From a bacterium (lineage in GTDB: Bacteria; DRYD01), in assembly GCA_039630415.1 (NCBI GenBank), contig JBCNVB010000013.1:96001-160000 (forward strand): a stretch of 64,000 nt of DNA, read 5' to 3'. Made by a program: the position numbers and the translations under genes. This document shows, in pieces, positions 8,233 to 45,693 of the stretch (its first letter is position 1; each line of letters starts with the position of its first letter). Below the pieces are notes generated by a model. That model made no database searches. It saw nothing but the letters and a program-made list of their open reading frames with translations, and was not told the origin of the DNA.

Positions 8233-8826
8233 ATATTTTTTGTACCACCTAGAATTTTTCTTGTAATACAGAATTCTTTTATGAAGCCTATGGGGTTTTT
8301 CTTTCCAAATTTCTATTTCTTCTGGTAAAATTATATAACCTCCCCAGTGCTCAGGCCTTTTCACTTCTTTGTCTTTGTACTCTTCTAGATATTTCTCAAA
8401 AAGTTGCATTAGTTTTTTATAGCTTTCTAACTCTTGTGATTGTTTGGATATAATTGCAGATATTTGTGATCCTTTGGGTCTGGTTTTAAAATATCTATCT
8501 GAAACTTCTGGTGGTACTTTTTGTGCAATACCTCTAATCCTTATTTGAATATCCATTTTTTCCCAATAGAATACCAGTGCTATATTTGGATTTTGTGATA
8601 ACTCTTGACCTTTTTGAGATTGGTAGTTAGTATAAAAAATTAGTCCTTCATCATTTATTTCTTTAATTAGTACACATCTACTGTTGGGTTTGTTGTTTAC
8701 GCAGGTTGATATTACTGCCACGTCAGGATACTTAAGACGTAGTTTTTGTGCTTTTTGATAGTAATATTTTACTATTTCTAGTGGGTTTTGGGGGGGTAGT
8801 CTTTTGCTTGATTTATTTTGTTTCAT
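8221..8826 (-). CDS. pdxH: pyridoxamine 5'-phosphate oxidase
   Basis: FYTNYQSQKG, YFKTRPKGSQI, RPEHWGGY, HRLHKR, terminal LYP. Confidence 0.95.
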   Translation of the reverse strand: MKQNKSSKRLPPQNPLEIVKYYYQKAQKLRLKYPDVAVISTCVNNKPNSRCVLIKEINDEGLIFYTNYQSQKGQELSQNPNIALVFYWEKMDIQIRIRGIAQKVPPEVSDRYFKTRPKGSQISAIISKQSQELESYKKLMQLFEKYLEEYKDKEVKRPEHWGGYIILPEEIEIWKEKPHRLHKRILYYKKNSRWYKKYLYP

Positions 8827-9544
8827 TAATATTTGACATTTCTTTTGCTCTTCTTTGAGTTATCTTGGATATGAGATTTTGAGCACCTGATTTGAGGGCT
8901 TTATATGCATAGTAAGATACACCTACTATATCTCCCACAATTGCTATTGCTACTAGATAGGGAGCCATTGATGCAAGAGAAGGTAGCGAGAAAGCAGCGG
9001 CAATTGCTCCAACTACACCCAGCAAGTTAGTAATTACCTTCGCTCCATTAACACCTATATCTATTTTGTTCTCATCCAACAGCTTCTTGAACTTATCTAT
9101 CTCCAACATTAGTTGCTTTTTTTGATCCTCTGATAAACTCTGTATCTCTTTTTGCAATGTCTCTAGCTTTTGCTTAATGGTATCTTGTATTTCTTTCCTT
9201 TGTTTAAATTTATCTATGAATTTCCAGGTATCTAGAGCTAAAGTAACCCCTCTTATAGCACCTAAAAGTATTTTATCAACCAATTCTGAAAAGCTACTGT
9301 ATACACCTGTTACTACATTATCCTTTAATTGTTCTGCTATGGTTTTAAAGACAAAAGCTGGATTTTCTTCAATAAACTCTTGAACACTTTGGGCAGAGGA
9401 AATAAAAAAGTCCTGGGCGTAACCAACTACATCTGCTATCTTACTAGTCAAAGGATTCGAAACATTTTTATTAACATTTACGTTCTTATTTACCGTAGTT
9501 AGATTCACTTTATTTGTATTTTCTATGTTCGACATATGTGTCAT
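8813..9544 (-). CDS. hypothetical protein: N-rich N-terminus, coiled coil, C-terminal hydrophobic hairpin
   Basis: AGGAGGG RBS before ATG 9544 (MTHMSNIENT); longer ORF start 9628 overlaps the regulatory motif. Confidence 0.75.
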   Translation of the reverse strand: MTHMSNIENTNKVNLTTVNKNVNVNKNVSNPLTSKIADVVGYAQDFFISSAQSVQEFIEENPAFVFKTIAEQLKDNVVTGVYSSFSELVDKILLGAIRGVTLALDTWKFIDKFKQRKEIQDTIKQKLETLQKEIQSLSEDQKKQLMLEIDKFKKLLDENKIDIGVNGAKVITNLLGVVGAIAAAFSLPSLASMAPYLVAIAIVGDIVGVSYYAYKALKSGAQNLISKITQRRAKEMSNINETK

Positions 9545-9625
9545 TTTTAATCCCTCCTGTAAAAGTCTTATCCTGTTTATGACTTTGTTATGCATATAAA
9601 TATGTACGTCAGGTAGTTTATTGGT

Positions 9626-9646
9626 CAAATGTAAAAAAAATGTTAA
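9626..9646 (-). promoter_or_regulatory. direct-repeat box TTAACA-TTTTT-TTTACA-TTTG
   Basis: + strand TGTAAA 9630-9635 and TGTTAA 9641-9646; 85 nt upstream of ATG 9544. Confidence 0.6.
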
Positions 9647-12381: not shown

Positions 12382-13464
12382 ATGCTTTGTAGAAATATTA
12401 GACTTCTAAAACCGGTTGATATAAAAAAACACTTAGATGACTACGTTATAGGTCAAGAAAGGGCAAAAAAGATATTATCAGTGGCTGTTTACAATCATTA
12501 TAAAAGAGTACTATTGGGTACTAGAGGTAGTGTAGTAGAGGAGATGGGATTACAAGAGGTAGAGTTACCAAAATCAAACGTATTGATGATAGGTCCCACA
12601 GGATCTGGAAAAACATACTTAGCTAGTACTCTAGCTAAGATATTGAATGTACCTTTTTCTATATCTGATGCTACTTCTCTAACGGAGGCTGGTTATGTTG
12701 GAGAAGATGTTGAAAATATTCTGCTTAGGTTAATTCAAGCTGCTGGCTGGGATATAGAATATGCTCAGATTGGTATATGCTATATAGATGAAATAGATAA
12801 GATAGCCAGAAAGAGTGCGGATAATCCTTCTATAACGAGGGATGTTTCGGGAGAGGGAGTGCAACAAGCTTTGCTAAAAATCCTTGAAGGAACCATAGCT
12901 AACGTACCTCCTCAAGGAGGTAGAAAACATCCCCATCAACAATTCATACAATTCGATACCACCAACGTACTATTTATAGCTGGTGGAGCTTTCAGTGGTA
13001 TAGAGGATATAATAAAATCCAGATTAAAAACTTCTTCCATAGGATTTAGAACAAATCCAACAAAACAGGAAGAAACTGACTATATATCATCAGTAGACAA
13101 TGAAGATCTCTTAAAGTATGGATTTATACCTGAGTTCATAGGTAGGTTTCCTGTTATAGCAACTCTATCTAAATTGGGTTTGGAGGAATTGAAGGATATA
13201 CTTGTTAAGCCGAAGAACTCTATAATAAAACAGTATCAAAAATTACTAGCTTTAGATGGTATAAAGCTAACGGTGGAAAAGGAAGCGATAGAAACTATAG
13301 CACAAAAAGCTTACGAGAGTAAGACGGGTGCAAGAGCACTCAAGTCTATTGTAGAAAATATACTCCTAGATGTAATGTTTGAAATACCTCACCTAGAAAA
13401 TGTCAAGGAAGTGATAATTACTAAGCAAGTAGTAACTGAAAACAAAAAACCGATCTTGAAATGA
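12382..13464 (+). CDS. clpX: ATP-dependent Clp protease ATPase ClpX (lacks N-terminal zinc-binding domain)
   Basis: [48 protein letters not shown] loop. Confidence 0.96.
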
Positions 13465-15245
13465 ATCAAATAGAGCTTGTAAAAAAACTAGCAAATATAA
13501 ACCTAGTTTACGTGGCAATTATTGTATTTATAAATCTACTAAGCTACTTCTCGTTCAAAAGTTTAGATTTGATACTTATAGGATTAAGTGTAATAGTAAT
13601 GTTTGTTTCTTCTTTGCCATATTTTAGGGAATTCAATATAGAGAATTTCAAGCTAACATTTTTTCTCCAAGGGTTAGGGCTGGTTGCTATATGTATATTC
13701 CTAACGTTTAAAAACCCACTCTATATTTTTCTCTTAGGTTTAAATGCTACATACATATTCTCGTTGTCAATTTTTAAGGATGGATATAAATATGCTATAC
13801 CTCTTTTGATCTTGTCAATTATACCCATATTTTACTTCTTGTTCGATGCTAAATATATCATTCAGCTAAGTAAGATTTATAGTAGTATACAAAGTTTTAG
13901 AGGAGGATATTTGAATTTTTTGTTGGTATTTGTATTCATAATTTCTATTGGATTATATGTTGTTACCCAACTTAGAAGCTTCATAATGGATTATTACAAA
14001 TCTCAGGTTATGAGTAATATTCAGGCTAGAATGGATGAGATAAATAGGGTTGCACAGCAAAAAGCAAGAGAAGCTGAAGAAAAACATAGAGAAATAATTC
14101 TAGTAAAAGAAAAGCAAGAAAAGATATTTGCTATAAATACTGATCTAGCAAAAAGAGTAAAGAACATAAAAGCTCAGCTACAATATATTTCTTCCGAATT
14201 AAAAGATATGTTATATGCTACTGGTGTAGTAGTGTTGTTTGAAAGAGGTGGATTTATAACTGCGGATTACCATGTTGATGTTCCTTTACCAGTTGTTGAT
14301 ACCCTTAAAGTATCTCCAAAAACAAATGAAATTGTTAAAAATTTCATCTTTAAATGCCTAAAAAATAAGGAAATTATGCATATCAATAAAAGAAAAGAAA
14401 TATTTGTTAAAGACTTTAGTAAAGAGGAGTGTATAACGTTTTTACAAAGTCTCTCAAAACTTACATTTGATGTATACGAAATACTCATGGTACCGATAAT
14501 AAACAGCTTTGGGGAATCTATGGGGGTTTTTGTGATATTCAATAGCAGGCAGGATTATTTTACTGATATTGATAAGAGATTAGCTGAGTTATTGGGAGTT
14601 CAAGCGGGAATACTTATTCATAACTCAATGTTAATAAAGAAAATTGAAGATACATTCTACGAGACTATAAATGCTTTTAGCAGTGCTATTGAAGCTAAAG
14701 ATAAATATACACCTGTGCTACATACCTACAGGGTTGGTGAATTGGCATATAAAGTTGCTCTTGAAATGGGTCTAAGTGAGGAGGAAGCAGAAAGGATAAA
14801 AATAGCTGGTATACTTCACGATGTAGGAAAATTAGCTATACCAGATAGTATACTAGCAAAGCAAGGACCATTAACCGAAGAAGAAAGAGAAATAATAAAA
14901 ACTCATTCGGAAGAAGGTAGTAAAATCCTGTCTAAAATTTCATTCTTTAGAGAAAAAAATATTCACATATATGTTCTATACCATCATGAAAGAGTTGACG
15001 GTAGAGGATATCCAAAAGGTCTAAGAGGAAGAGAAATACCGCTAGCATCAAATATCATATCGGTAGCAGATACATATGATGCAATATCTACACCCAGACC
15101 TTATAACAAACACTACGCATCAGAACAAAAAGCAATAGAGATTATTAAAGCAGAAAGAGGAAGACAGTTCTTTGAAGAAGTTGTTGATGCCTTCTTTAGG
15201 GTTTTAGAGAAAGAAAAAGCTAAGAAAAAAGTGGGAAATGTATAA
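13461..15245 (+). CDS. membrane GAF + HD-GYP domain phosphodiesterase
   Basis: N-terminal TMs, coiled coil, GAF-like VPI..GV..FT..D, LHDVGK and [11 protein letters not shown]. Confidence 0.88.
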
Positions 15246-18382: not shown

Positions 18383-18403
18383 TTTACATTTTTTTCACAT
18401 TTA
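18383..18403 (+). promoter_or_regulatory. direct-repeat box TTTACA-TTTTT-TTCACA-TTTA
   Basis: Hexamers at 18383 and 18394; 56 nt before ATG 18456. Confidence 0.65.
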
Positions 18404-18455
18404 CTGCTCTAAAAGAAGCTATTTCAGTGAAATCCTAAGATAAGGAGGTAAAATT

Positions 18456-19556
18456 ATGAACGTTAACATATATGTAGGACCAAGAGAATATAACGCTTTA
18501 TGTACGGCAATATCACAGATAGTTTTTTCACAGTCCAGGGAAGTTAAGGAATATGTTCCGATTGGTTTTAACTATAGAAACCATCTATTTGAAATTCAAG
18601 AGAATTTGGAAAGAGAATACATTAAAGCATTGGGTTTAGAGGACGAATCTCATGCTGAAAATTTGGCCAGCTTTTTTATAGAGCAAATAGATTCTCAAAT
18701 ACCACAAAAATTGTACTATGTTAAAGGTAAGAAAGTTGAGGTAATAGCAGCTAATCCAGAAGAGGGTGTTAAACTTGCTAAAGAGTCAGATGAATTTATA
18801 AATAGATTTGCTTCCTACTTATCCAAACCATTCCATTCTAAACAATATGTTATGACGCTCCATAAAGATCCACATAGAAAGGTATTGACTGCTTTGCATA
18901 AACCCGGTCAAAGTGTAGTTATAGGACAAGTTTATAATCAAAATGGGAATTCTACATTGGAAAGAGATGTTTTATATCATGAATTGGGTCATTCTTTATT
19001 GGATGGTATAGTTCCTCAGGCTAAGCGATGCTTTAGTGAAGCTTTTGCAGACATAATGGCATTCCTGAATCAAGCTTCAAAACCAGATCAAGTAAAGGAT
19101 ATAAAAGACTTCAGAAAAAGTAACAGAATATCTCAAATTGCTGAAAATAGTGCTATTGCAAAAGATCACAAGCTGAGTTATATACGTGATTTGGCTCAAC
19201 AACATAGATATAATTGGGTTGATGAATATGAAGCTGGATCAGCTGTAGCAAGTGCTTTTTACAGAACATGGGCAAATTATGTAGAGGGTTTGAAATCAAA
19301 GGGTATACCTCAAGAAGAAGCGGTTAAGATAGCCAATGATAAATTTTCTAGGTTAGCAATAAGGGCTGCTGAAAACTTAGCTAATCATAAAGAACCCAAA
19401 GCCATACACTATGCGGAGTCTATACTAAAAAATCTCGATTCAGATCATGAACTCAGAAAATTATACTACGAGGAACTGCAAAAAATCGGATATAAAGAAG
19501 CTTTAGAGCATCAAAGGCGTGTTGAGGAAGAATTAAGAAAGTTAGGGATACATTAA
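18456..19556 (+). CDS. thermolysin-like (gluzincin) zinc metalloprotease paralog, unit A
   Basis: DVLYHELGH..FSEAFADI..YIRDL; AAGGAGG RBS; no signal peptide. Confidence 0.75.
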   Translation: MNVNIYVGPREYNALCTAISQIVFSQSREVKEYVPIGFNYRNHLFEIQENLEREYIKALGLEDESHAENLASFFIEQIDSQIPQKLYYVKGKKVEVIAANPEEGVKLAKESDEFINRFASYLSKPFHSKQYVMTLHKDPHRKVLTALHKPGQSVVIGQVYNQNGNSTLERDVLYHELGHSLLDGIVPQAKRCFSEAFADIMAFLNQASKPDQVKDIKDFRKSNRISQIAENSAIAKDHKLSYIRDLAQQHRYNWVDEYEAGSAVASAFYRTWANYVEGLKSKGIPQEEAVKIANDKFSRLAIRAAENLANHKEPKAIHYAESILKNLDSDHELRKLYYEELQKIGYKEALEHQRRVEEELRKLGIH

Positions 19557-19579
19557 AATGTTAAAGAGGTGAAAAGATT

Positions 19580-20668
19580 ATGAATATTTCCATTGAGAAA
19601 GAAAGGTTGTTCTCTATTTATGATAGGGCAAGGGAATATAATGCTCTATGCAGAACTGTGTCAGAAGTTATTCGTTCACATTCTAGAGAGGTTAGAGATT
19701 ATGTTCCAATCAGTTTTAGCTATATAAATCATTTGTTAGAAATTCAGGAGGCTTTAGAAAGGGAATTCGCGAAAGCATTAGATTCATTAGGTTTAGAAAG
19801 AGAATATAGAGTTGAGAATTTGGCAAGTTCTTTTATGAAATACATGAATATTGTGATGCCAGAAAAATCATACTACGTTAAAGGTAAAAAAGTTGAAGTA
19901 ATAGCTGCCAATTCTCAAGAAGCAGTTAGACTTGCAAAAGAATCTGATGAATTCATAAATAGATTTAGTTCTTACTTATCTAAACCATTTAATTCTAAGC
20001 ATTATGTTGTAACGCTCCAACAAGGTGGAAAATTAAATGCTTCGTATATGTCAGGTGAAAATGTTGTTTTGGGAGGGGTATATAATGAAAAAGGGAATTC
20101 CGTACTGGAAAGGGATGTTTTATATCATGAGCTAGGTCATTCTTTTTTGAATAGTATGGTTCCTCGGGCTAGAGAATGTTTTCATGAAGCTTTTGCGGAC
20201 ATAACGGCATTTTTGAATCAAGCCTCAAAACCTGATCAGATAAAGGATATAAAAGACTTTAGAAAAAGCAATAGAATATCTCAAATAGCTGAGAATACGG
20301 CTATTGCAAAATTTTATGGAATGAATTATGTACGTGATCTGTCTGGGCAGAATAGGTATAAATTGAATTCAAATGATGCACATGGTCGTGGTGCTGCAGT
20401 AGCAACTGCTTTTTACAGAACATGGGCAAATTATGTAGAGAGTTTGAAATCAAAAGGTATATCTCAAGAGGAAGCAGTTAGGATAGCTAACGACAAATTT
20501 TCTAGGGTAGCAATAAAGGCTGCCGAAAACTTAGCCAATCACAAACAACCGTCAGCTTTAGACTATGCACAATCTATACTGAAAAACCTTGATACAGATC
20601 CTGAAATTAAAAAGTTATATTACAGTGAGCTAGAAAAAATTGGATATCAACAAGCTTTAAAAAGTTAA
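19580..20668 (+). CDS. thermolysin-like zinc metalloprotease paralog, unit B
   Basis: LNASY, DVLYHELGH, FHEAFADI, YVRDL, DAHGRG. Confidence 0.78.
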   Translation: MNISIEKERLFSIYDRAREYNALCRTVSEVIRSHSREVRDYVPISFSYINHLLEIQEALEREFAKALDSLGLEREYRVENLASSFMKYMNIVMPEKSYYVKGKKVEVIAANSQEAVRLAKESDEFINRFSSYLSKPFNSKHYVVTLQQGGKLNASYMSGENVVLGGVYNEKGNSVLERDVLYHELGHSFLNSMVPRARECFHEAFADITAFLNQASKPDQIKDIKDFRKSNRISQIAENTAIAKFYGMNYVRDLSGQNRYKLNSNDAHGRGAAVATAFYRTWANYVESLKSKGISQEEAVRIANDKFSRVAIKAAENLANHKQPSALDYAQSILKNLDTDPEIKKLYYSELEKIGYQQALKS

Positions 20669-20693
20669 CAGAATTTTTTTGTAGTATATTGTT

Positions 20694-20714
20694 TTTACAT
20701 TTTCTTTACATTTA
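20694..20714 (+). promoter_or_regulatory. direct-repeat box TTTACA-TTTTC-TTTACA-TTTA
   Basis: Hexamers at 20694 and 20705; 59 nt before ATG 20770. Confidence 0.65.
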
Positions 20715-20769
20715 CTTGTGTATGAAAAACTATCTTACTTAAATCCCCATATAAGGAGGTAGAAAGATT

Positions 20770-22977
20770 ATGAGTATTTATTCGATGCAAGAGAATATAG
20801 GATTTAGGATTTTTTGTATGGGGATAGCGCAATTGCTTAATTCACAGTCTGCAGGAATCGGAGACTATGTTCCAGTTAATTTTAATTATAGAAATCATAT
20901 GGTTGAAGTCCAGGAAGCGATGATGAAAGAATATATAAGAGCATTAGGTTTGAGTGAATCTGATGCTAGGAAGGAAGTAAACTTTTTTATGGAATTTGAT
21001 CTTCGTGGCAGAATGCCAGAAAAGTCGTATTACGTTAGAGGTAAAAACGTTGATGTAATAGCTGCGAATCCGGAAGAAGCTGTTATACTTGCTAAAGAAT
21101 CTGATGAATTTATGAATAGATTTGCTCCCTATTTGTCCAAACCATTTAATTCCAAACATTATGTTATAGCGTTGAATCGTGATAGTGATTCAGCACGATT
21201 GAACGCTTCGTATAAACCTGGTTCAAATGTGGTTGTTGGACAAGTTTATAATGAAAAGGGAAATTCTACATTGGAAAAAGATGCTTTGTATCACGAGTTG
21301 GGTCATTCATTGTTGGATAATATAGCTCCTCGTGCGGGATCTTGCTTTCACGAAGCTTTTGCTGATATAATGACGTTTTTAAATCAAGCTTCAAAACCAG
21401 ATCAAATAAAGGATATAAAAGACTTCAGAAAAAGTAACAGAATATCTCAAATAGCTGAAAATACAGCTGTTGCAAAAGATAGAGAAATAAATTACTTACG
21501 TGATTTAGCAGAACAACATAGATATAATTTGCTTGATGAATATGAGGCTGGATCAGCGGTAGCAGGTGCTTTTTATAAAACGTGGGCAAATTACGTAGAG
21601 AGTCTAAAAGCAAGAGGTATACCTCAAGAGGAAGCAGTTAAAATGGCTAATGATAAATTTTCTAGGGTAGCAATAAAGGCTGCCGAAGACTTAGCTAATC
21701 ATGAAAAACCCCTAGCTATACACTATGCGGAGTCTATACTAAAAAATCTCGATTCAGATCCTGAGATTAAAAAATTATACTACAAGGAGCTAGAAAAAAT
21801 CGAGTATCAGGAAGCTTTGAAGTACTACGAAAAATCCAAAAATGGATGGGATAAAGAAACTCTATATACAATTTATGAAGAATCAAAAGTATCTAACACT
21901 TTTTGCAATACAATATCGAAAGTAATTAATTCCCAATCCAAAGTCAAGGATTATGTTCCGATTAGTTTTAATTATAAGGATTATATGTTTGAGATTCAAA
22001 AAGCTTTGGAAAAAGAATATATGAGAGCATTGGATGCATTAGACTTAGAGGGGAAATTTAATCCCAAAGATCTTACAGATACTTACATGAAAAGTATCAA
22101 AGTTTTAATGCCGGAAAAATCATATTATGTTAGGGGTAAGAAAGTTGAGGTAATAGCAGCAAATCCTGAAGAGGCAGTCAAACTTGCAAAAGAGTCGGAT
22201 GAATTTATGAACAGGTTTACTCGCCATATATCTAAACCTTTCAATTCCAAACATTATATTATGACAATCAAAGGAGAGAAAGATTTAAATGCTTCGTATT
22301 TGACGGGTGAGAATGTGGTAAAGGGGCAGGTGTATAACAAAAATGGTAATTCTACGCTTGAGGGGGATGTTTTGTATCATGAGCTAGGTCATTTATTGTT
22401 GGATAATATAGTTCCTCAGGCTGACATGAGCTTTGGTGAAGCTTTTGCAGACATAATGGCATTTTTGAATCAAGCCTCAAAACCTGACCAGATAAGGGAT
22501 ATAAAAGACTTTAGAAAAAGCAATAGAATATCTCAAATAGCTGAAAATAGTGTTATTGCAAAGCAGGGAAAAGAAAGTTATCTGCGTGATTTAGCCGGCG
22601 AACATAGATATAGTATGTATAATAATGTTTACGAAAGTGGTGCTGCTGTAGCTAGTAGTTTTTACAAAGCATGGGCAAATTACGTAGAGAATTTGAAATC
22701 AAAAGGTATACCCCAAGAAAAGGCAGTAAAGATAGCTAATGAGAAGTTTTCCAGGGTAGCTATAAAGGCTGCTGAAGACTTAGCTAATCATAAACAACCC
22801 TCAGCTTTAGATTATGCAGAGTCTATACTAAAAAATCTTGATTCAGATCCTGAGATTAAAAAATTGTATTACAGTGAGCTAGAGAAAATTGGATACCAAG
22901 AAGTTTTAAAGGATCTAGAGTATATCAAGGAACAGGCAAGAAAATATGAATCACAACATTATTCTGATAGATGGTAA
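20770..22977 (+). CDS. tandem two-domain thermolysin-like metalloprotease (A'-B' fusion)
   Basis: Two complete NASY..YHELGH..EAFADI units in one ORF. Confidence 0.78.
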   Translation: MSIYSMQENIGFRIFCMGIAQLLNSQSAGIGDYVPVNFNYRNHMVEVQEAMMKEYIRALGLSESDARKEVNFFMEFDLRGRMPEKSYYVRGKNVDVIAANPEEAVILAKESDEFMNRFAPYLSKPFNSKHYVIALNRDSDSARLNASYKPGSNVVVGQVYNEKGNSTLEKDALYHELGHSLLDNIAPRAGSCFHEAFADIMTFLNQASKPDQIKDIKDFRKSNRISQIAENTAVAKDREINYLRDLAEQHRYNLLDEYEAGSAVAGAFYKTWANYVESLKARGIPQEEAVKMANDKFSRVAIKAAEDLANHEKPLAIHYAESILKNLDSDPEIKKLYYKELEKIEYQEALKYYEKSKNGWDKETLYTIYEESKVSNTFCNTISKVINSQSKVKDYVPISFNYKDYMFEIQKALEKEYMRALDALDLEGKFNPKDLTDTYMKSIKVLMPEKSYYVRGKKVEVIAANPEEAVKLAKESDEFMNRFTRHISKPFNSKHYIMTIKGEKDLNASYLTGENVVKGQVYNKNGNSTLEGDVLYHELGHLLLDNIVPQADMSFGEAFADIMAFLNQASKPDQIRDIKDFRKSNRISQIAENSVIAKQGKESYLRDLAGEHRYSMYNNVYESGAAVASSFYKAWANYVENLKSKGIPQEKAVKIANEKFSRVAIKAAEDLANHKQPSALDYAESILKNLDSDPEIKKLYYSELEKIGYQEVLKDLEYIKEQARKYESQHYSDRW

Positions 22978-22980
22978 GAA

Positions 22981-23001
22981 TTTACATTTTTTTTACAATT
23001 A
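22981..23001 (+). promoter_or_regulatory. direct-repeat box TTTACA-TTTTT-TTTACA-ATTA
   Basis: Hexamers at 22981 and 22992; 57 nt before ATG 23055. Confidence 0.65.
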
Positions 23002-23054
23002 GTAAACCAAAAAATATTTTTTATCAAACATAGAGCAATTAGGAGGTGGAAAAA

Positions 23055-23627
23055 ATGCCAGGAATAGAAGCAGGAAAAATAAACATAAATGCAAAGAATG
23101 TAGTAATTAGAAATAATGATGTCGGAATAAAGGGGAAAAACGTTAAAATTCAGGGAGAAAATTTAGAATTGATATACAATGATAAAGGTATAGATACTGT
23201 TAATTTGTCAGCTACTACTGATAATCTAAAGATTAGTTCTAACAAGCTTGGTATTCAGGTAACGAATGGTTCACTAAAAACCAAATCCGAAACCTTAATA
23301 TCTAATAATCATAAAGGAATAAAGGCTCATAATTTGGGTCTCAAGAGTAAGGGTGATTTAGTGATAGTGGGTAATGGAGTAGGAGCTTCTGCTGAAGGTA
23401 CTGTATCTTTACAAGGATCAAATGTAGAAATAAAATCAAATCAGGTAGGCGTATCGGGTAAGAATGTTTTTGTTAAGGGTGATAAGGTATCAATTGGTGA
23501 CAATACTGTTGGGTTTGATGTAGATTCAATGAATGCTAATGTTCAAGATTTTCAACTGTATGACAATGTTATAGCTATAAAGCAAAGTACTAAGGGGAAA
23601 AAGAAACAAGACAAACAATATAACTAG
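23055..23627 (+). CDS. hypothetical beta-helix (N-x-x-G-I repeat) protein
   Basis: AGGAGG RBS at 23041 supports ATG 23055; about 21-22 aa repeats NNDVGIKG, NDKGID, NKLGIQ, NHKGIK, NGVGAS, NQVGVS, NTVGFD. Confidence 0.7.
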   Translation: MPGIEAGKININAKNVVIRNNDVGIKGKNVKIQGENLELIYNDKGIDTVNLSATTDNLKISSNKLGIQVTNGSLKTKSETLISNNHKGIKAHNLGLKSKGDLVIVGNGVGASAEGTVSLQGSNVEIKSNQVGVSGKNVFVKGDKVSIGDNTVGFDVDSMNANVQDFQLYDNVIAIKQSTKGKKKQDKQYN

Positions 23628-31951: not shown

Positions 31952-31994
31952 TTAACAAAATTTTTACATTTATTTAAACCAAAATTAACATTTA
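31952..31994 (+). promoter_or_regulatory. extended 11-bp-period box TTAACA/TTTACA/TTAAAC/TTAACA
   Basis: Hexamers at 31952, 31963, 31974 (degenerate) and 31985; last one 53 nt before ATG 32044. Confidence 0.65.
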
Positions 31995-32043: not shown

Positions 32044-33060
32044 ATGATGAACTTTAACAATCCTGGAACAGCACCAATCTTTCAAAGTCAACCTCTAAAT
32101 ACCAATCCTGTTCAAAATCAACTGCCTACCCAAACTACTGCCCAATCTGCCACTGGAAATACATCACCAACATCTTCTGATCCATTTGAAAAGCTAATGA
32201 ATAAATCCCTGGCTGAAAAAACTAACGATAAACCTACTAATTTACAATCAAATGATTTGCAATCAAATAATCTGGAAACACCAGAATTACAAAGATATAG
32301 AAAACAAATAGAAGCTCTAGATCTTGATCAGTTAAGAATGGAAAGGAAGAGACTAGTTGATTTAATAGTTAAATACATGAATGAAGGTAACACTGAGTTA
32401 CTTGATGAAGCTCAGAAGAAGTATAAAATAGCCGTGCAAGTTAGTGATAGTAAAGTTATGAATTTTTCAGCTGGAGCTATAGCTCAAACCCCCAAAACTG
32501 AGCAAACCCAAGTGGCTCAAAATCAATCTCAACAAGAGGACTTCCTTAAAAAGCTAAGGGAATCCGAAATACTTCCTCCTGACAATACTCAACCACCTAC
32601 TATACCTCAGCAAACGGCTATATCACAAAAAACAAACATTGTTGATACAACAACTACATCAGTAGTAGGAGCTAATCCCAATGTTCAAGTTTTCTCTGCC
32701 CCAACCACCGAATCGGTAATACAAGGATTTGTAAATAATCAACCTACTCCTACTATGAACCAACCTTTAAATCAATATGGTACGATAAATGCTCTAAATA
32801 CGATGAACATGCAACAAATGAACAGTTTATTCTCAAACCCTCAGGGTATGTTTAATTCTCTAAATACGATAATGAATCCGATGGCACCTGTACACCCATA
32901 CTCTCCTCTTATGACCAGCTATGGAATATATGCCCCTAATCTAAGAAGAGATCCCACAATGAACGCTTTTCTAAATGGTGAACTTTATCCTACTGATATG
33001 GCAGAACTTGGTGTTTGGTCTGTTCTTAACAGAGAATTGTTCAAAAGAACAGACGAATAA
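32044..33060 (+). CDS. hypothetical N/Q/T/P-rich low-complexity protein with short helical domain
   Basis: GGAGG RBS; long ORF; no signal peptide. Confidence 0.75.
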   Translation: MMNFNNPGTAPIFQSQPLNTNPVQNQLPTQTTAQSATGNTSPTSSDPFEKLMNKSLAEKTNDKPTNLQSNDLQSNNLETPELQRYRKQIEALDLDQLRMERKRLVDLIVKYMNEGNTELLDEAQKKYKIAVQVSDSKVMNFSAGAIAQTPKTEQTQVAQNQSQQEDFLKKLRESEILPPDNTQPPTIPQQTAISQKTNIVDTTTTSVVGANPNVQVFSAPTTESVIQGFVNNQPTPTMNQPLNQYGTINALNTMNMQQMNSLFSNPQGMFNSLNTIMNPMAPVHPYSPLMTSYGIYAPNLRRDPTMNAFLNGELYPTDMAELGVWSVLNRELFKRTDE

Positions 33061-33226
33061 ATCTAAAATAAGATCGAGTAAATCTAAAATAAAAATTCAA
33101 GATAAAACGTGTAAGTTTTTAGTCTATTTTTAGTCTAGGTTATAGAGGCATGTAGTGATGATTTTAAAAATACTTAAATACTGTATTAAAGAATTTTGAC
33201 GTCTGCTTTGTCTAGATTATTCTTGT

Positions 33227-33679
33227 TTATTGTTGTTGTATAGTTTCAAGAGCTTTTGTAGCCATTGTTTTAATTGATTCGACTACACTCAAATTAGCTT
33301 CATACATTCTGGAAGCTTGTATCATTTTTGCCATTTCCTCAACTACATTTACATTTGGCAGAGTAACATATCCATCTTTATCAGCGTTTGGATTAGTAGG
33401 ATCGTATACTTTTCTAAATCCTGAGTTATCTTGTCTTACTCCAACAACATTTGCTGCATTTAATTGGTTTTCAAATTCTTCTCCAAAACTAACGGTAAGT
33501 ATTCCTTCTTCTTCTGGATTGTTTAAAGGTTTAGAGGAGACGATAAGATCTTTTCTTTTGTAGGGTTCTCCGGTGATGGTGTTAGTGGTGTTTGCGTTAG
33601 CTATGTTTTCTGCGATTATATCCATCATTTGTCTGCTTACGCTCATTCCGCTAGCTGCAATTCTGAGAGAGTCAAACAT
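33227..33679 (-). CDS. flgC: flagellar basal-body rod protein FlgC
   Basis: ASGM..ENIANANTT, PYKRK, YDPTNPNAD..GYV.LPNVN..EM..MI.ASR.YEAN. Confidence 0.96.
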   Translation of the reverse strand: MFDSLRIAASGMSVSRQMMDIIAENIANANTTNTITGEPYKRKDLIVSSKPLNNPEEEGILTVSFGEEFENQLNAANVVGVRQDNSGFRKVYDPTNPNADKDGYVTLPNVNVVEEMAKMIQASRMYEANLSVVESIKTMATKALETIQQQ

Positions 33680-33721
33680 TTTCTATCCCCCCTTAACTAC
33701 TGAATTTAAGCTAATTTTAGG

Positions 33722-34024
33722 CTATATGTTGGTTTGGAATAGAGTTTTTGTTCCTTCAATTAGTTTTTGAGTTATACCTCTTATCATTTTGAGGGTTAGT
33801 CCTGCTTCTTGCCAAGCAAAAACTACTTGGTTTACATCTTTGACTTCTCCAGAAGCTAATTTTCTGCTTATATCTCCTGCTTCCAGAAGCTTGTTGTTTG
33901 CTGAACCTATAGTATTTTTTATAACATCTCCGAATGTAACCATTCCACTTTCTGCAGTACTTTTAGTTTCAACAAATGGGTTTGCTAATCTAGTTGGTTT
34001 TGTAATATCAATGGGGTTAAACAT
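33722..34024 (-). CDS. fliE: flagellar hook-basal body protein FliE (divergent)
   Basis: 100 aa; F.D.IK, LASGEVKDVNQVV.A..EA.LTL pattern; located between flgB and flgC. Confidence 0.8.
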   Translation of the reverse strand: MFNPIDITKPTRLANPFVETKSTAESGMVTFGDVIKNTIGSANNKLLEAGDISRKLASGEVKDVNQVVFAWQEAGLTLKMIRGITQKLIEGTKTLFQTNI

Positions 34025-34039
34025 AATTATCTACCTCCT

Positions 34040-34450
34040 TTACATTCTTTCAAATATTTCGGTTAGCGATTTAAGGGGTGAGGTTGCTCCTCTCAAAAGA
34101 AGTTGGTATTGGATTTGATTTTCTAGAGATTTATTCATTTGTTCACTTATGTCGACTTTTTTACCTGTGGAGGTTGCTTCAGGTTTAAAGCTAGCCAGTT
34201 CTATGCTTCCAGATATATGCTCTGGATCTTCTGCTTGTAACTTTACGTTAAATGGGTCGGATTGATTATCAAACTTTTCTTTCCTTATTTCTGCAAAAAC
34301 TTGTTCAAAGTTTAGGTCTTTAGCTACGTAGTTTGGATTGGTCGCGTTTGCTATGTTGCTTGCTATTACTTGTTGTCTTTGCCAGGCAGAATCTACTGCT
34401 TTTCTCATGTACTCATAATGATCTCCTAGTAGGTCTTTCATGAAACTCAT
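34040..34450 (-). CDS. flgB: flagellar basal-body rod protein FlgB (divergent C-terminus)
   Basis: RQQVIASNIANATNPNY.AKDL.FE; VD..EQM...ENQIQYQ. Confidence 0.88.
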   Translation of the reverse strand: MSFMKDLLGDHYEYMRKAVDSAWQRQQVIASNIANATNPNYVAKDLNFEQVFAEIRKEKFDNQSDPFNVKLQAEDPEHISGSIELASFKPEATSTGKKVDISEQMNKSLENQIQYQLLLRGATSPLKSLTEIFERM

Positions 34451-34504
34451 TTTTTTCCACCTCCAAGTTATTTTGTTTGTACACCTGTTTAAAAATTTTT
34501 TAAA

Positions 34505-34525
34505 TAATTGTAAAATAAATGTTAC
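34505..34525 (-). promoter_or_regulatory. direct-repeat box GTAACA-TTTAT-TTTACA-ATTA upstream of flgB
   Basis: + strand TGTAAA 34509-34514 and TGTTAC 34520-34525; 58 nt before flgB ATG 34450. Confidence 0.62.
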
Positions 34526-34539
34526 ATCCTAAATATCAG

Positions 34540-35598
34540 CTATAAAACTCCGCTTTGCTTAATATGGTTATGGAAGATTTGTCTTATTTGTGGATCGTCT
34601 ATAGTGTTAAGGATGGAAATAGCATAATCTTTTACATTGGCGTTAGGTATATTTCTAGTGTTTTCAGCGGCTTTGATAGCTATTGATTTAAATTTATCAT
34701 TAGCAATAGCTAAGGCTTCTTGTGGATTCATACCACGTTGTTTAAGCATTTCAACGTAATCAGCCCAAGTTTTATAGAAACTACTAGAAACCGGTAAACT
34801 TAGTGAATAAGGATCAATAATTATATCAGGCATGTATTTATAATCTCCTGCTAAATCCCTTGCAAATTGAATTCCCCAAGACATACTTACATAGGTATTA
34901 TCAGCTATTGTAGATATTTTATTTGTTTTTCTAAAATCTTGTATATCTGTTACTTGACTAGTATTTGAAGCTTCATAAAGAAACGTAATAATGTCTGCGA
35001 ATGCTTCGTGAAAATCTCTAGTAGCGGTAGGATTTATTTGATCTAGTATTGCATGACCTATTTCATGTACCAAAACATCTTTCTCTAAAGTGGAGTTCCC
35101 TTGGTTATTATAGGTGTAACCAACAACTACGTTTTGACCCGGAATATAGTAAGCATTACCTAACTGATGCATAAACTCTACGTTATTGATTGTTACTATG
35201 TTAATTTTGTGGGGGAAAGGACTACTCATATACGCTAGAAAATCTCTCAAAACTTTATCAGCTCTCATTGCTATCATCATTGCCTCATTCGGATTTGAAG
35301 CTACTACTGTGCTTTTGTTACCCTCTACATAGTACATCTTACTCGGCATACTATCTATCAAGTATAACATACTATACAAAGAAAGAAGCTGATCAAAGAC
35401 ATATAAATCTTGTCCTTGTATATTTTCATTAGAAATTTGGCTGAAAACATCTTCCGAAATCATTTGTTTGACCTTATCAGTATCAAAACTTATGGGACCA
35501 TATTCTTCTATTTGGGGGTTAATCTGTCTTACATATTCCCTAATTTTCTTGGCTGCAATATCAAACACTTTTATATTTTCCTGGTAGTTGAAATTCAT
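34540..35598 (-). CDS. thermolysin-like zinc metalloprotease, distant paralog of the 18.4-23.0 kb array
   Basis: GNAYYIPG, GNSTLEKDVLVHEIGH, FHEAFADI, DFRKTNKIS, TWADYVE, ANDKF..AIKAAEN; start ATG 35598 after GGGGTGG. Confidence 0.78.
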   Translation of the reverse strand: MNFNYQENIKVFDIAAKKIREYVRQINPQIEEYGPISFDTDKVKQMISEDVFSQISNENIQGQDLYVFDQLLSLYSMLYLIDSMPSKMYYVEGNKSTVVASNPNEAMMIAMRADKVLRDFLAYMSSPFPHKINIVTINNVEFMHQLGNAYYIPGQNVVVGYTYNNQGNSTLEKDVLVHEIGHAILDQINPTATRDFHEAFADIITFLYEASNTSQVTDIQDFRKTNKISTIADNTYVSMSWGIQFARDLAGDYKYMPDIIIDPYSLSLPVSSSFYKTWADYVEMLKQRGMNPQEALAIANDKFKSIAIKAAENTRNIPNANVKDYAISILNTIDDPQIRQIFHNHIKQSGVL

Positions 35599-44259: not shown

Positions 44260-45693
44260 TTATATGATTTCATCAATAAAATCGGACAACCTTCCTATCA
44301 TGTTACTTATTATCTTACCTTGATATACTTTTAGCATAGTTTTTACACGTTTAACACTTTCAATTATTTCGGTATGTGGTATTGCTTTTATAAACATTTC
44401 AACTAGTTGTTTATCTAGTCTATTTTTTTCTGCATCATCTTTAAGGATGGAGATTGCTTTGTGGAATGAAAAAGCTGGACGGTAAGGTCTATCTATTATC
44501 AAAGCATCGAACGTATCAGCTATAGATATAATTCTGCTTTCCAAGGGTATTTTTTGATGGGAGTAACCGTAGGGATACCCACTGCCATCTAGTCTTTCAT
44601 GATGTAATTCTGCTATATCTACTATTTCCTTTATGAATTCATATATGGGGCTAAGCAGATTTTTTAATTCTCTAACATGTAACTTAATTATTTCAAACTC
44701 TTCCCACGTTAATTTATCTTTCTTTTGCAAAACTTGATCTGGAACGATTATTTTTCCAAAATCGTGGATAAGAGCTGCTTTGTAAATTCTATCTGCTCTA
44801 TCAGGTTCTAGACTTAACTGCTTAGCTATATTGTAGCTTATCAATGCTACTCTATACGAATGATCAAATGTATATCTGTCTTTCTTTTCAAGTAGATCTA
44901 TAGTGACAGTAATAAAAGTTATAACTTGATTGGAAATGTAAGTATTGTCTGTAGACGATAAAGCATAAATCCCCAAAATAATTGCAAAATATATTTTACA
45001 AGATTCAAAAGTATAAAAGAGTGTAACAAAAAACACCGATTGTATTAAGATTTCAATGATTGTAGAGGTTATTTGTATTTTGGTATGAGTTATAAACTTT
45101 TTAGCGTAATCGTCAACATAAATTACCTTTATGTCTTGATAAATTTGAAAAGCGATTTTTTCTATGAAGTTCCACACACATATTAGGGCTATTAGAAAAA
45201 TCATGGAATTTTTAATATCATTAATCATCAGCAGATTAGGAATATGGTATAGAAATATGAAGGAAACTATGGTTATTATCCATTCAATAAAGTACCTGTT
45301 GAGCTTTTCTTTGTCTATTTCTTTTTGAAGGGTTTCCAAGTAGCTATATCTTTCTTGGGATAAAGCCAATTTAGGTGAGGTATTAAAAAATTTAGTTACG
45401 AAGTGTGCTAATACTATGCTTATATTCGCTACAATCAATGAATAAAGTAATCCCTTACTTAAAGTTATTAGTATAAAAATTGGTTTAAATAAGTCTAGTT
45501 TGGGTAGTACACTTCTATGAAAGTATAGCTCTTTTCGTACCAAAATGGACAGAAAGAGACTTACTATATTAATAAAATCATCAATTGATGTAGAGTTACT
45601 GAAAACACTAAAAAATATTATGATGATTGAAATGAGATAGAAAAGAGGAATAGATACGGTTTCATCTATTTGAATTAAGTTTTTGCTTGTCAT
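44260..45693 (-). CDS. membrane HD-GYP domain protein
   Basis: Multi-TM N-half; D.YT..HS.RVA, IHDFGK, HHERLDGSGYP, RPYR. Confidence 0.88.
   Translation of the reverse strand: MTSKNLIQIDETVSIPLFYLISIIIIFFSVFSNSTSIDDFINIVSLFLSILVRKELYFHRSVLPKLDLFKPIFILITLSKGLLYSLIVANISIVLAHFVTKFFNTSPKLALSQERYSYLETLQKEIDKEKLNRYFIEWIITIVSFIFLYHIPNLLMINDIKNSMIFLIALICVWNFIEKIAFQIYQDIKVIYVDDYAKKFITHTKIQITSTIIEILIQSVFFVTLFYTFESCKIYFAIILGIYALSSTDNTYISNQVITFITVTIDLLEKKDRYTFDHSYRVALISYNIAKQLSLEPDRADRIYKAALIHDFGKIIVPDQVLQKKDKLTWEEFEIIKLHVRELKNLLSPIYEFIKEIVDIAELHHERLDGSGYPYGYSHQKIPLESRIISIADTFDALIIDRPYRPAFSFHKAISILKDDAEKNRLDKQLVEMFIKAIPHTEIIESVKRVKTMLKVYQGKIISNMIGRLSDFIDEII

Follow-up and report, generated by a model that had tools for sequence, protein, structure and literature searches.

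The proximal rod operon flgB-fliE-flgC of the genome studied here, a member of the hot-spring phylum Calescibacteriota, belongs to a flagellar-type type III secretion apparatus, which very probably is a reduced flagellar machine that no longer confers motility. We lean towards the view that this filament-less, flagellum-like machine, linked by a common upstream sequence element (the box) to proteases without signal peptides, is a device for protein export and not a swimming organ. If this is right, a whole hot-spring phylum probably keeps its flagellar machine for exporting proteins rather than for swimming.

The rod operon and its secretion machine

The window is a stretch of 64,000 nucleotides, and the operon lies in its positions 32044-35598 between MP352, an M4-like metallopeptidase, and LC338, a mostly disordered protein of 338 aa. 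The features of the locus are as follows.

31959..31983, plus strand: box upstream of LC338, 85 nt to the start codon, with one perfect and one degenerate half-site
32044..33060, plus strand: LC338, phylum-restricted 338-aa protein and candidate early-type export substrate (structure model, invariant motifs)
33227..33679, minus strand: flgC, proximal rod (TIGR01395, 145.1 bits, cut-off 102.1)
33722..34024, minus strand: fliE, rod adaptor, between flgB and flgC (PF02049 and TIGR00205, the latter 39.9 bits, both above cut-off)
34040..34450, minus strand: flgB, proximal rod, at the head of the operon (TIGR01396, 67.2 bits, cut-off 59.05)
34505..34529, minus strand: box upstream of flgB, 79 nt to the start codon, PWM 14.3 bits
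34540..35598, minus strand: MP352, M4-like (thermolysin-fold) zinc peptidase of 352 aa (fold model, motif, synteny)

The earlier note had described rod genes between two signal-less neighbours, with the metalloprotease on the same strand 89 nt upstream of flgB. The HMM matches bear out this gene content and its coordinates, the MP352 frame ends 89 nt before flgB, and neither MP352 nor LC338 has an N-terminal hydrophobic stretch as judged by our own hydropathy heuristic, which was used in place of SignalP. The order flgB-fliE-flgC is the same in nine genomes and the flgC product is 75-88% identical across eight relatives. In one relative (G005) the identities of FlgB (84%), FliE (75%) and FlgC (84%) exceed those of FabD (55%) and MutS2 (45%).

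The comparison covered 11 genomes of the phylum from three genera, with relatives named Candidatus Calescibacterium, all of them metagenome assemblies that are 71-90% complete. A flagellar-type export gate outside the window had been postulated, and the inventory of the whole focal genome found it: FlhA, FlhB and FliO/P/Q/R are encoded together with the ATPase complex FliH/I/J, the MS ring protein FliF and the C ring proteins FliG/M/N. The rod set FliE-FlgB-FlgC-FlgF-FlgG is complete, and there are further a short FlgE/F-like protein, a FliK-like ruler with a T3S4 domain, and a FlgJ-N-like protein with a lytic transglycosylase (SLT). These genes form about nine scattered units at no fewer than eight places on six contigs, and their reading frames are unbroken in up to 11 genomes across the three genera. 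FlhA is found in 11 of 11 genomes, and the NP[V/I/T]H motif of FlhB, like the FliK-like T3S4 domain a retained part of the switch, in 10 of 10. By its sequence scores the machine is typed as flagellar and not as an injectisome: FlhA reaches 747.6 bits with the model of its own family and 543.7 with SctV, FliI scores 654 bits on FliI_clade2, above the cut-off, and for FlhA, FlhB, FliI, FliP and FliQ alike the flagellar models give better scores than the Sct ones. FlhB, FliP, FliQ, FliJ and FlgF pass their cut-offs; FliF and FliG fall well below the equivalog cut-offs, yet pass those of Pfam.

Flagellin_N (PF00669), MotA_ExbB, CheW, the hook cap FlgD and the L-ring protein FlgH gave no match in any of the 11 genomes, nor was CheA found, and the MotA/ExbB/TolQ superfamily as a whole is missing, whereas every family searched matched the flagellated control genomes. 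The focal genome has no Flagellin_C (PF00700), gave for FlgK just cross-matches to FlgG and FlgC, and, as the only genome searched for it, has no P-ring protein FlgI; the set of families searched leaves aside MotB, FliD, FliS, FlgL, FlgM, FlgN and FliA. Each genome has exactly three FlgE/F/G-type frames, of 245-279 aa, and a long hook protein was not found across the phylum, the FlgE-like frames all measuring 271-279 aa. FliM is without the N-terminal 20 residues that form the CheY-binding segment in E. coli, and in the torque helix of FliG three of the five charged residues of E. coli are replaced (R281V, D288K, R297S), residues which we take to have torque-helix roles in that species. Of what makes a motile flagellum, the gate and ATPase, MS ring, C ring and rod are present, and the filament, the hook with its cap and junction (FlgK, in the focal genome) and the stator (MotA only) are not; the complete canonical flagellum that would have spoken against the earlier note was not found. 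No outer-membrane route is evident either, with the L and P rings absent and the secretins unlinked. Most genomes have two secretins and three incomplete ones have a single one; both of those in the focal genome are boxless and unlinked to flagellar genes, and one of them, of 534 aa, lies among housekeeping genes and scores best on the GspD and PilQ models.

A direct-repeat box and the genes behind it

The box is a direct repeat, TTTACA-N5-TTTACA, with TTTACAyTTTnTTyACA as the full element. The focal genome has 14 exact copies, all 14 intergenic, and 11 copies with one mismatch, of which 10 are intergenic, against two copies of the same pattern read backwards. Across the seven genomes of the genus, exact copies and reversed controls number 14/2, 14/4, 15/1, 19/8, 17/12, 3/1 and 7/3. 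The second genus shows no enrichment of the exact box over the control (3 v 7, 3 v 3, 2 v 2), and has variant sites upstream of flgB and LC338 nonetheless. A shared 10-mer considered as the box was rejected, its 3 matches against 1.2 expected being not significant. The box stands in either orientation relative to the gene, about 50-105 nt upstream.

That LC338 and flgB both carry the box, as had been claimed, is confirmed in all nine genomes examined, where box-like sites stand upstream of the two genes at -63 to -117 despite differing neighbour genes. The flgB site ranks 27th of 1278 upstream regions by PWM and keeps its place, between -63 and -95, in all nine; the LC338 site (7.7 bits) ranks 43rd of the 1278, and the orthologues have sites of 7.7-25.1 bits in 9 of 9 genomes. 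With a PWM trained on 25 sites, the fliF site among them, a box of at least 10 bits is found at four of nine flagellar units and at 70 of 1284 genome-wide (p = 8e-4), and relatives have exact boxes upstream of flhB (G004), flgF (G005) and fliM (G007). Since no fixed -10 element was found at the box sites, the box is more likely to be a regulator site than a plain promoter. In the flagellar regulon of CtrA the box TTAA-N7-TTAAC likewise places phased half-sites upstream of flagellar operons and many orphans; the Calescibacteriota box has at least two phased half-sites with an 11-bp period, but its half-site, TTTACA, differs from that of CtrA, and so does its use in both orientations relative to the gene.

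Besides flagellar operons the box precedes about 25-40 further units. They encode, among others, signal-less peptidases of the S8, C11 and M4-like kinds, hydrolases of the cell wall, proteins of amino-acid catabolism, and orphans whose N-termini are rich in N/Q/S/T/P. This last feature, pointed out in the earlier note, holds up in numbers, the median N-terminal content of these residues being 0.33 in 28 box genes and 0.23 in 1214 others (Mann-Whitney p = 1.4e-6). The claim that all box orphans are signal-less is true inside the window but does not extend to the genome, where signal-like N-termini occur in five of the 28 box genes and in 339 of the 1214 others (p = 0.29). The regulon also includes cytoplasmic enzymes, namely lysine aminomutase, transketolase, RidA and aldehyde dehydrogenase. 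That the box joins the flagellar operons to signal-less peptidases and orphans under common regulation is supported by the distribution of predicted sites; membership of the box regulon is not the same as export, as the regulon mixes cytoplasmic enzymes with proteins that have signal-like N-termini.

The two neighbours of the rod operon

LC338 has no Pfam or NCBIfam family match, occurs throughout the phylum (11 of 11 genomes) and has just seven matches among 1.84 billion representatives. Its structure model is largely disordered, with a single confident helical hairpin at residues 80-147. The residues A10-P-I-F13 and D46-P-F48..L51 are invariant in nine sequences, and about 30-40 residues past A10-P-I-F13 stands a gate-recognition-like motif, F48-E-K-L-M52. 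A like motif occurs at residues 31-50 in six of nine known early proteins of the focal genome (FliE, FlgB, FlgF, FlgG, FlgJ-N and SLT), while the strict pattern occurs, by chance or otherwise, in 35 of 1267 open reading frames and in none of the box peptidases. As a resemblance in sequence, the disordered N-terminus of LC338, with A10-P-I-F13 as its small hydrophobic signal, matches the two-signal layout of early export subunits as set out in the excerpt of PMC8983047. The predicted complex of FlhB-C, the cytoplasmic domain of FlhB, with LC338 residues 1-70 scored 0.32 against 0.02 for the best of three controls, a weak sign of docking in the low-score range: of 157 solved complexes 116 pass the mark used, as do 2 of 215 mismatched pairs, and scores of 0.60 or less include only 18 of those 157 but both passing mismatches. 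The three runs share at least 86% of contacts, with a partner pLDDT of at least 48. The LC338 family has no profile similarity to FlgC/F/G/E-like proteins (hhalign probability 0.06%). It is possible, if somewhat short of probable, that LC338 is exported by the flagellar-type machine, and it would then count among the early (rod/hook) substrates, as one specific to the lineage. Nothing marks it as the pore-former that had been suggested, since no hydrophobic or amphipathic feature of that kind was seen; its features are closer to those of an early-type export substrate.

MP352 starts at an ATG after the ribosome-binding site GGGGTGGG. The motif H178-E-x-x-H182 and E198, the third-ligand Glu about 20 residues downstream, are invariant in 10 family members. 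MP352 has no Pfam or NCBIfam match (E < 0.01), Pfam M4 included, and a search of solved structures with its family profile brought up no peptidase. The AlphaFold2 model (pLDDT 84.9, pTM 0.88) has M4 peptidases as its best Foldseek matches (E 1e-4 to 7e-3, TM 0.41-0.50), namely aureolysin, vibriolysin, ProA, LasB, protealysin and thermolysin. The likeness of MP352 to M4 peptidases is thus one of modelled fold, without membership by sequence profile: HExxH and the downstream Glu are common to both, protealysin-like enzymes included, and the model is nearest to M4 structures, but the TM scores are just 0.41-0.50, and MP352 has neither a signal peptide nor a recognisable propeptide and is part of a lineage-specific tandem expansion. 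This expansion lies elsewhere in the window.

18383..22977, plus strand: four MP352 paralogues in tandem downstream of secA, 39-43% identical to MP352 (open reading frames of 366 aa, 362 aa and a fused two-domain 735 aa)
18383-18399 and 20694-20710: exact boxes in the paralogue array (exact pattern match)
22981..23627, plus strand: repeat-rich orphan of 193 aa with an exact box at 22981-22997, no Pfam match

The box is present at paralogues and orthologues of MP352, but one of at least 4 bits was not found at MP352 itself. Its position upstream of flgB, from which a role as cargo had been proposed, is unique to the focal genome and absent from all seven others whose fetched locus extends far enough upstream of flgB. 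MP352 would have come to lie next to flgB through local rearrangement only.

Rival readings and related systems

Since the filament, the stators and the steering have been lost and the box is common to the machine and signal-less proteases, the function is probably protein export and not swimming. We propose that the machine would be unable to rotate or propel and would work as a protein exporter, and that a putative box-binding regulator would turn it on together with a degradative, scavenging programme. The signal-less box peptidases would be its candidate late cargo, a role we regard as doubtful. The idea that a flagellar-type gate delivers protein is favoured by the retained gate, the loss of the canonical flagellum and the co-regulation through the box; the particulars of MP352 and a pore-former as cargo are on weaker ground.

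It is also conceivable, though in our view rather unlikely, that the basal body exports its own rod parts only and has the role of a periplasmic or envelope structure, of an anchor or sensor, or of a nanotube-like connection platform, the box reflecting just a shared response to starvation and the peptidases without signals being intracellular. This would sit well with the mixed content of the regulon, with the absence of any outer-membrane conduit linked to the machine and with box peptidases devoid of the gate-motif-like pattern. Subtilases without signal peptides can indeed be intracellular enzymes, and in Bacillus flagellar export cores are tied to nanotube formation. It is harder to reconcile with the retention of the ATPase complex, the C ring, the FliK-like ruler and the NPxH motif of FlhB, seemingly more than a static structure needs, with the compositional bias of the box-gene N-termini, or with M4, C11 and S8 enzymes being typically extracytoplasmic. 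Protease secretion also has a precedent in Lysobacter, according to an excerpt of PMC7688988.

An ordinary motile flagellum, whose genes for filament, hook cap, junction, stator and chemotaxis were missed through incomplete assemblies or divergence, seems very unlikely to us. Colman et al. (2016) inferred motility from the same genes and, in the excerpt concerned, list cheY and cheD (PMC4791363). The genomes are indeed incomplete and the lineage divergent, and since FliF and FliG fall far below the family cut-offs, the models could fail to recognise a filament protein that has diverged strongly. Against this, five families are missing from all 11 genomes, every one of which has FlhA and three short FlgE/F/G types, the control genomes all gave the expected matches, the MotA/ExbB/TolQ superfamily is wholly missing, and both the CheY-binding end of FliM and most of the torque-helix charges of FliG are gone. 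That the machine is a decaying relic with no present function we consider highly improbable: many components are lost and the rest scattered, but those that remain are intact across genera, are better conserved than FabD or MutS2 and have a conserved cis element upstream.

The closest precedents of the export device that we favour come from Buchnera and Lysobacter, with filament-less flagellar systems in which apparatus and basal body are kept and flagellin is absent, as was found here. Lysobacter enzymogenes OH11 is a non-flagellated predator without functional flagellin, which depends on FliI and FlhB to secrete a protease, a glucanase and a third protein and retains flgE, flgD, flgH and flgI, as described in that same excerpt (PMC7688988). 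On this description, OH11 and the Calescibacteriota are both free-living and keep export gate and basal-body genes without a functional flagellin, but the latter are without the hook cap and L ring (11 of 11 genomes) and flgI (focal genome), with only the short FlgE/F-like protein left. Filament loss is phylum-wide in the Calescibacteriota, whereas in Lysobacter it is recent and confined to one genus. Unlike in OH11, a dedicated cis box would join the machine to its candidate cargo, and the system is known here from genes alone. The reduced genome of Buchnera aphidicola has retained its basal-body and type III export genes but no filament, and the account excerpted from PMC8109811 regards protein transport as the likely role of these structures. 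As far as that account goes, a filament-less basal body with its export genes is common to both; Buchnera, a gammaproteobacterium, lives as an obligate endosymbiont of insects, whereas the Calescibacteriota are hot-spring organisms in which the reduction goes deeper and stops at the rod. Buchnera presumably keeps its hook genes.

In the scheme of Abby and Rocha (2012), as given in the excerpt of PMC3459982, injectisomes arose by a loss of motility with translocation kept, a secretin being added later, and the Calescibacteriota gene set fits, by analogy, what would be the first of these steps. The Myxococcales system, proposed there as a descendant of an early form, is described as being without FlgB, FlgC and FliE (PMC3459982). 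An injectisome would have an Sct-type core without flagellum-specific genes; here, the secretins are unlinked and GspD- or PilQ-like, the core scores as flagellar (FlhA above SctV, FliI clade 2), and FlgB, FlgC and FliE are kept.

The rod locus and the flagellar inventory

The earlier note had placed three proximal-rod genes between a metalloprotease and a low-complexity protein, and this arrangement was borne out, since the coordinates, the 89-nt gap and the FlgB, FliE and FlgC families all held.

Rod locus (window coordinates)
34540-35598, minus strand: MP352, a metallopeptidase of 352 aa, 89-nt gap before flgB
34040-34450, minus strand: flgB, above the curated cut-off of its NCBIfam equivalog
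33722-34024, minus strand: fliE, above the curated cut-off of its NCBIfam equivalog
33227-33679, minus strand: flgC, above the curated cut-off of its NCBIfam equivalog
32044-33060, plus strand: LC338, a mostly disordered protein of 338 aa, convergent to the row MP352-flgB-fliE-flgC

The rest of the 64-kb window surrounds the locus with housekeeping genes including mutS2, fabD and serS, and family searches found no other flagellar gene in it. The commoner order is flgB-flgC-fliE; here fliE sits between both rod genes, and the order flgB-fliE-flgC is kept in nine genomes of one family with varying flanking genes. An MP352-type peptidase is never found upstream of flgB in the seven other genomes whose compared sequence extends far enough; fragments of unrelated genes are found there instead, the 3' end of secA in the related genome G004 being one of them. 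LC338 adjoins flgC in the source genome and G006 only, lies approximately 2-3 kb from it in G004 and G005, and elsewhere is on a different contig from flgC. Since the flanks differ between genomes, adjacency is no evidence that MP352 or LC338 works with the rod, and synteny was therefore dropped as evidence for cargo.

A whole-genome flagellar inventory, as the earlier note had proposed, revealed the export gate together with the absence of flagellin, MotA, CheW, FlgD and FlgH across the phylum, Calescibacteriota.

Flagellar gene units elsewhere in the source genome (assembly of 1.40 Mb, 31 contigs, 89% complete)
flhB-flhA
fliM-fliN-fliO-fliP-fliQ
fliR
fliH-fliI-fliJ, downstream of alaS
fliG and fliF
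flgF
operon of a lytic transglycosylase, a FliK-like protein, a 271-aa FlgE/F-like protein, FlgG and a 103-aa FlgJ-N-like protein

Occurrence of six families in the phylum survey (11 genomes of three genera, 71-90% complete)
FlhA: 11/11
Flagellin_N: 0/11
MotA_ExbB: 0/11
CheW: 0/11
FlgD: 0/11
FlgH: 0/11

Flagellated control genomes gave matches for every one of the six families. In the source genome, Flagellin_N, Flagellin_C, FlgK, FlgI and MotA_ExbB were not found. The FlgE/F/G-type ORFs were the same three in each genome of the phylum, all of 245-279 aa and none longer. Judged by family models, the core apparatus types as flagellar and not as an injectisome: FlhA scored 747.6 bits on the FlhA model versus 543.7 on SctV (NCBIfam), FliI reached 654 bits with the clade-2 FliI model and so exceeded the NCBIfam cut-off, as did FlhB, FliP, FliQ, FliJ and FlgF with their own models.

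The remnant components are all intact, and identity between G005 and the source genome is 84% for FlgB, 75% for FliE and 84% for FlgC, with 55% for FabD and 45% for MutS2. FlhB has N-P-x-H at the autocleavage site in all 10 genomes compared, and the FliK-like protein still has its T3S4-type domain, so the substrate-specificity switch survives in both its parts. The features of rotation and steering look eroded at the sequence level. FliM begins past the region in which the E. coli protein carries its CheY-binding motif. In one pairwise alignment of FliG (22% identity), of five charged residues of the E. coli torque helix K264 is kept and D289 becomes E, but R281 is replaced by V, D288 by K and R297 by S.

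Neither L nor P rings were found, and two secretins are unlinked to flagellar genes and lack the repeat (box) described below. How proteins would cross the outer membrane is the main gap in this picture. Release to the periplasm and release to the exterior are judged equally likely. One unlinked secretin of 534 aa (G000:C4:53360-54961) has a single N-domain, is located among housekeeping genes and scored best on the GspD and PilQ models, though below cut-off; a counterpart of approximately 512-536 aa occurs in 8 of 10 other genomes.

The box and the genes that carry it

The box has the form TTTACAyTTTnTTyACA and is often extended to three or four half-sites with an 11-bp period. This two-repeat pattern replaced a shared 10-mer, for which 3 matches versus 1.2 expected were not significant. 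The source genome contains 14 exact boxes, all intergenic, and 11 one-mismatch copies, 10 of them intergenic, most copies lying 50-105 nt upstream of a start codon. Exact boxes versus a reversed-pattern control numbered 14 v 2, 14 v 4, 15 v 1, 19 v 8, 17 v 12, 3 v 1 and 7 v 3 in seven genomes of the same genus; the exact box was unenriched against this control in a second genus (3 v 7, 3 v 3, 2 v 2) and did not occur in the third.

With a position-weight matrix built from 25 sites, the fliF site included, flgB ranked 27th, the transglycosylase operon 34th, LC338 43rd and flgF 49th among 1278 upstream regions. Inverted boxes stand before fliF (an exact copy) and flhB (18 bits). Sites of at least 10 bits in either orientation were found for 4 of 9 flagellar units versus 70 of 1284 genome-wide (hypergeometric p = 8e-4), a post hoc comparison with fliF in the training set. 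The stronger argument for the box is its conservation across genomes. Box-like sites occur at similar distances upstream of flgB in 9/9 genomes and of LC338 in 9/9, confirming the earlier claim that both genes bear it, and exact boxes are found upstream of flhB in G004, flgF in G005 and fliM in G007. A sigma-70 -35 element was rejected, as no TAnnnT followed at fixed spacing in the 25 sites. Since there is no such -10 hexamer and the box occurs in both orientations, it looks like a putative regulator binding site rather than a core promoter.

A gene-free stretch of approximately 1 kb upstream of alaS-fliH-fliI-fliJ (G000:C18:85443-86442) holds many box-like sites in both orientations, with scores including 16.2, 14.7 and 14.2 bits, and could be a regulatory hub or contain unannotated RNA or small genes. 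An exact box also lies just 3' of the gene for a PilQ-like secretin of about 700 aa in six genomes of two genera (G000, G001, G002, G004, G005, G007); in the source genome it precedes a 128-aa orphan (G000:C5:206137-206610). At window 8813-9646 (minus strand) a 271-aa orphan, divergent from a class I tRNA synthetase gene, has a one-mismatch box directly against the start of its longest ORF. This layout is repeated in G004, and since the match there starts at residue 59, the true start of the orphan is probably downstream.

The genes behind the best 42 upstream sites include two S8 subtilases, three C11 clostripain-like peptidases and M4-like paralogues of MP352, and in none of these was an N-terminal hydrophobic stretch seen by our hydropathy heuristic. 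Also among them are an NlpC/P60 hydrolase with an internal membrane segment, two lysine 5,6-aminomutase alpha subunits, RidA, an aldehyde dehydrogenase, a nucleoside transporter, a Lon-N domain protein and many orphans, one of which has an M15-like motif. In relatives the box is kept by orthologues of several of these members: by a C11 peptidase in G004 and by orphans of 378 aa in G005, 348 aa in G006 and G009 and 208 aa in G008, and it stands inverted, 66-87 nt upstream, before M4-like orthologues in G004, G005 and G006.

The N/Q/S/T/P-rich N-termini that the earlier note had remarked upon in several box products correspond to a genome-wide bias: the fraction of these residues in the first 30 has a median of 0.33 in 28 box-gene products versus 0.23 in 1214 other proteins (p = 1.4e-6). 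The lack of signals did not hold up as a mark of box genes genome-wide: 5/28 have signal-like N-termini versus 339/1214 of the other genes (p = 0.29), which is no depletion. Since box genes with such N-termini exist and several others plainly encode cytoplasmic enzymes, the notion that the box means export is too simple.

MP352 and LC338 as candidate cargo

MP352 and LC338 each match no Pfam or NCBIfam family. MP352 has paralogues and orthologues, and H178-E-x-x-H182 and E198 are invariant in the 10 family members compared. Its AlphaFold2 model (pLDDT 84.9, pTM 0.88) has M4 peptidases as the nearest solved folds by Foldseek (aureolysin, vibriolysin, ProA, LasB, protealysin and thermolysin; E 1e-4 to 7e-3, TM 0.41-0.50), and the leads in the ESM Atlas are M4/M36 families; a profile search against solved structures gave nothing meaningful. 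Given the invariant residues and the M4-like fold, MP352 is predicted to be a zinc peptidase of thermolysin fold that falls outside the M4 sequence profile and has no hydrophobic stretch at its N-terminus. No box precedes MP352.

Box-associated features elsewhere in the window
18456-22977 (18383-22977 with the first box), plus strand: tandem array of four M4-like paralogues, directly after secA
22981-23627, plus strand: 193-aa orphan behind an exact box, with short Gly/Asn/Lys-rich repeats and no family match

The array paralogues are 39-43% identical to MP352. Two of them are fused in a single ORF of 735 aa, and the first and third units each have an exact box in front. The secA 3' end directly upstream of flgB in G004 suggests a former adjacency of the array and the rod operon that a later rearrangement broke up. 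The 193-aa repeat orphan is possibly a beta-solenoid, and a histidine ammonia-lyase-type gene lies about 0.8 kb downstream of it.

LC338 is found in all 11 genomes surveyed for the phylum and is almost missing elsewhere: a search of 1.84 billion representative proteins gave 7 matches, and one of 185,579 species genomes gave 10 loci; the titles of the matches are two Candidatus Calescibacterium, one "Deltaproteobacteria bacterium" and, for most others, just "bacterium". Its model is disordered for the most part, the one confident element being a helical hairpin at residues 80-147. The pore-former proposed in the earlier note was not supported, as neither model nor sequence points to one: there is no hydrophobic segment and no confident fold beyond the hairpin. 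Its profile had no meaningful match among solved structures, no lead came from the ESM Atlas, and comparison with the rod protein profile revealed no similarity.

The N-terminus of LC338 is variable and disordered, save for the invariant A-P-I-F (10-13) and D-P-F-x-x-L (46-51). The gate recognition motif of early flagellar subunits reportedly has the consensus FxxxΦ. According to PMC8983047, such subunits have a small hydrophobic N-terminal signal, and the gate recognition motif lies about 30 residues beyond it and docks on the FlhB cytoplasmic domain. In the source genome, F-x-x-[LIVM]-[FLIMV] occurs at residues 31-50 of FliE, FlgB, FlgF, FlgG, the FlgJ-N-like protein and the transglycosylase, with the LC338 copy at residue 48. 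Of 1267 ORFs, 35 have the narrower F-[DE]-x-[LIVM]-[FLIMV] within residues 25-65; FlgB, the transglycosylase, FlgJ-N and LC338 are among them, but none of the box peptidases. Complex prediction of FlhB 218-362 with LC338 1-70 lent weak support to docking, with a score of 0.32 versus 0.02 for the best of three controls; the mark used was passed by 116/157 solved complexes and 2/215 mismatches, and at or below 0.60 by just 18/157 and both mismatches. Three runs agreed in at least 86% of contacts, with a partner pLDDT of at least 48. LC338 is a phylum-specific candidate substrate with export-signal-like motifs.

Proposed secretion without motility and its relation to known systems

The observations are consistent with a flagellar type III apparatus that ends at the rod, does not serve motility, is conserved in the phylum and shares its regulation with a degradative programme. 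We infer that this apparatus would export LC338, and perhaps the signal-less peptidases as well. The main rival is that it exports its own parts alone and that the peptidases act in the cytoplasm. The earlier note's claim of protein delivery stands in part: the gate is kept, flagellin, the MotA-type stator and other parts of a canonical flagellum were not found, and the box is shared, but the adjacency of MP352 to flgB is peculiar to the source genome and MP352 lacks the box. In a joint reading, which we consider rather unlikely to be correct as a whole, an old and independent conversion of the flagellum to secretion would have left a rod-only machine that keeps its own ruler and specificity switch, is governed by a dedicated box-binding regulator and delivers signal-less S8, C11 and M4-like peptidases, with which the cells would scavenge or attack neighbours in biofilms of hot springs. 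LC338 would then be a new structural or gatekeeping substrate, and an unlinked secretin may be the outer-membrane exit.

The closest precedents are in Lysobacter and Buchnera. As reported in PMC7688988, Lysobacter enzymogenes OH11 has no flagellin, keeps the export gate with flgE, flgD, flgH and flgI, and requires FliI and FlhB for the secretion of protease and other proteins; Buchnera keeps basal bodies without filaments (PMC8109811). Compared with Lysobacter-type filament-less flagella, the Calescibacteriota system would be more radical and much older, and unlike an injectisome it is flagellar by sequence. Abby and Rocha proposed that injectisomes began as flagella minus motility parts, with secretins recruited later (PMC3459982). 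In the literature searched, one paper discusses the flagellar genes of this phylum and takes them as motility genes (PMC4791363), and no mention of missing filament or stator genes was found. The inventory argues that the organelle cannot be a propeller, against that swimming reading. A strongly conserved rod-only machine in a deep-branching, free-living thermophilic phylum would be a natural experiment in flagellar type III secretion after the loss of motility, and it bears on the possible origin of injectisomes from flagella; if the joint reading were true, the machine would be a present-day counterpart of the earliest steps that have been proposed for that origin. The concrete, testable candidates gained are a cis element, a putative regulator, a phylum-specific candidate substrate and thermostable peptidases without classical signals.

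The window further encodes two HD-GYP-type (HD_5) proteins (13461-15242, plus strand; 44263-45693, minus strand), a PilT/T2SSE ATPase, an OPT oligopeptide transporter and an M20 peptidase, the last two of which fit a peptide-scavenging lifestyle. Elsewhere in the genome, a 1444-aa bacterial alpha-2-macroglobulin and a pilin-like protein are encoded just upstream of der and flgF (G000:C3:14593-18927).
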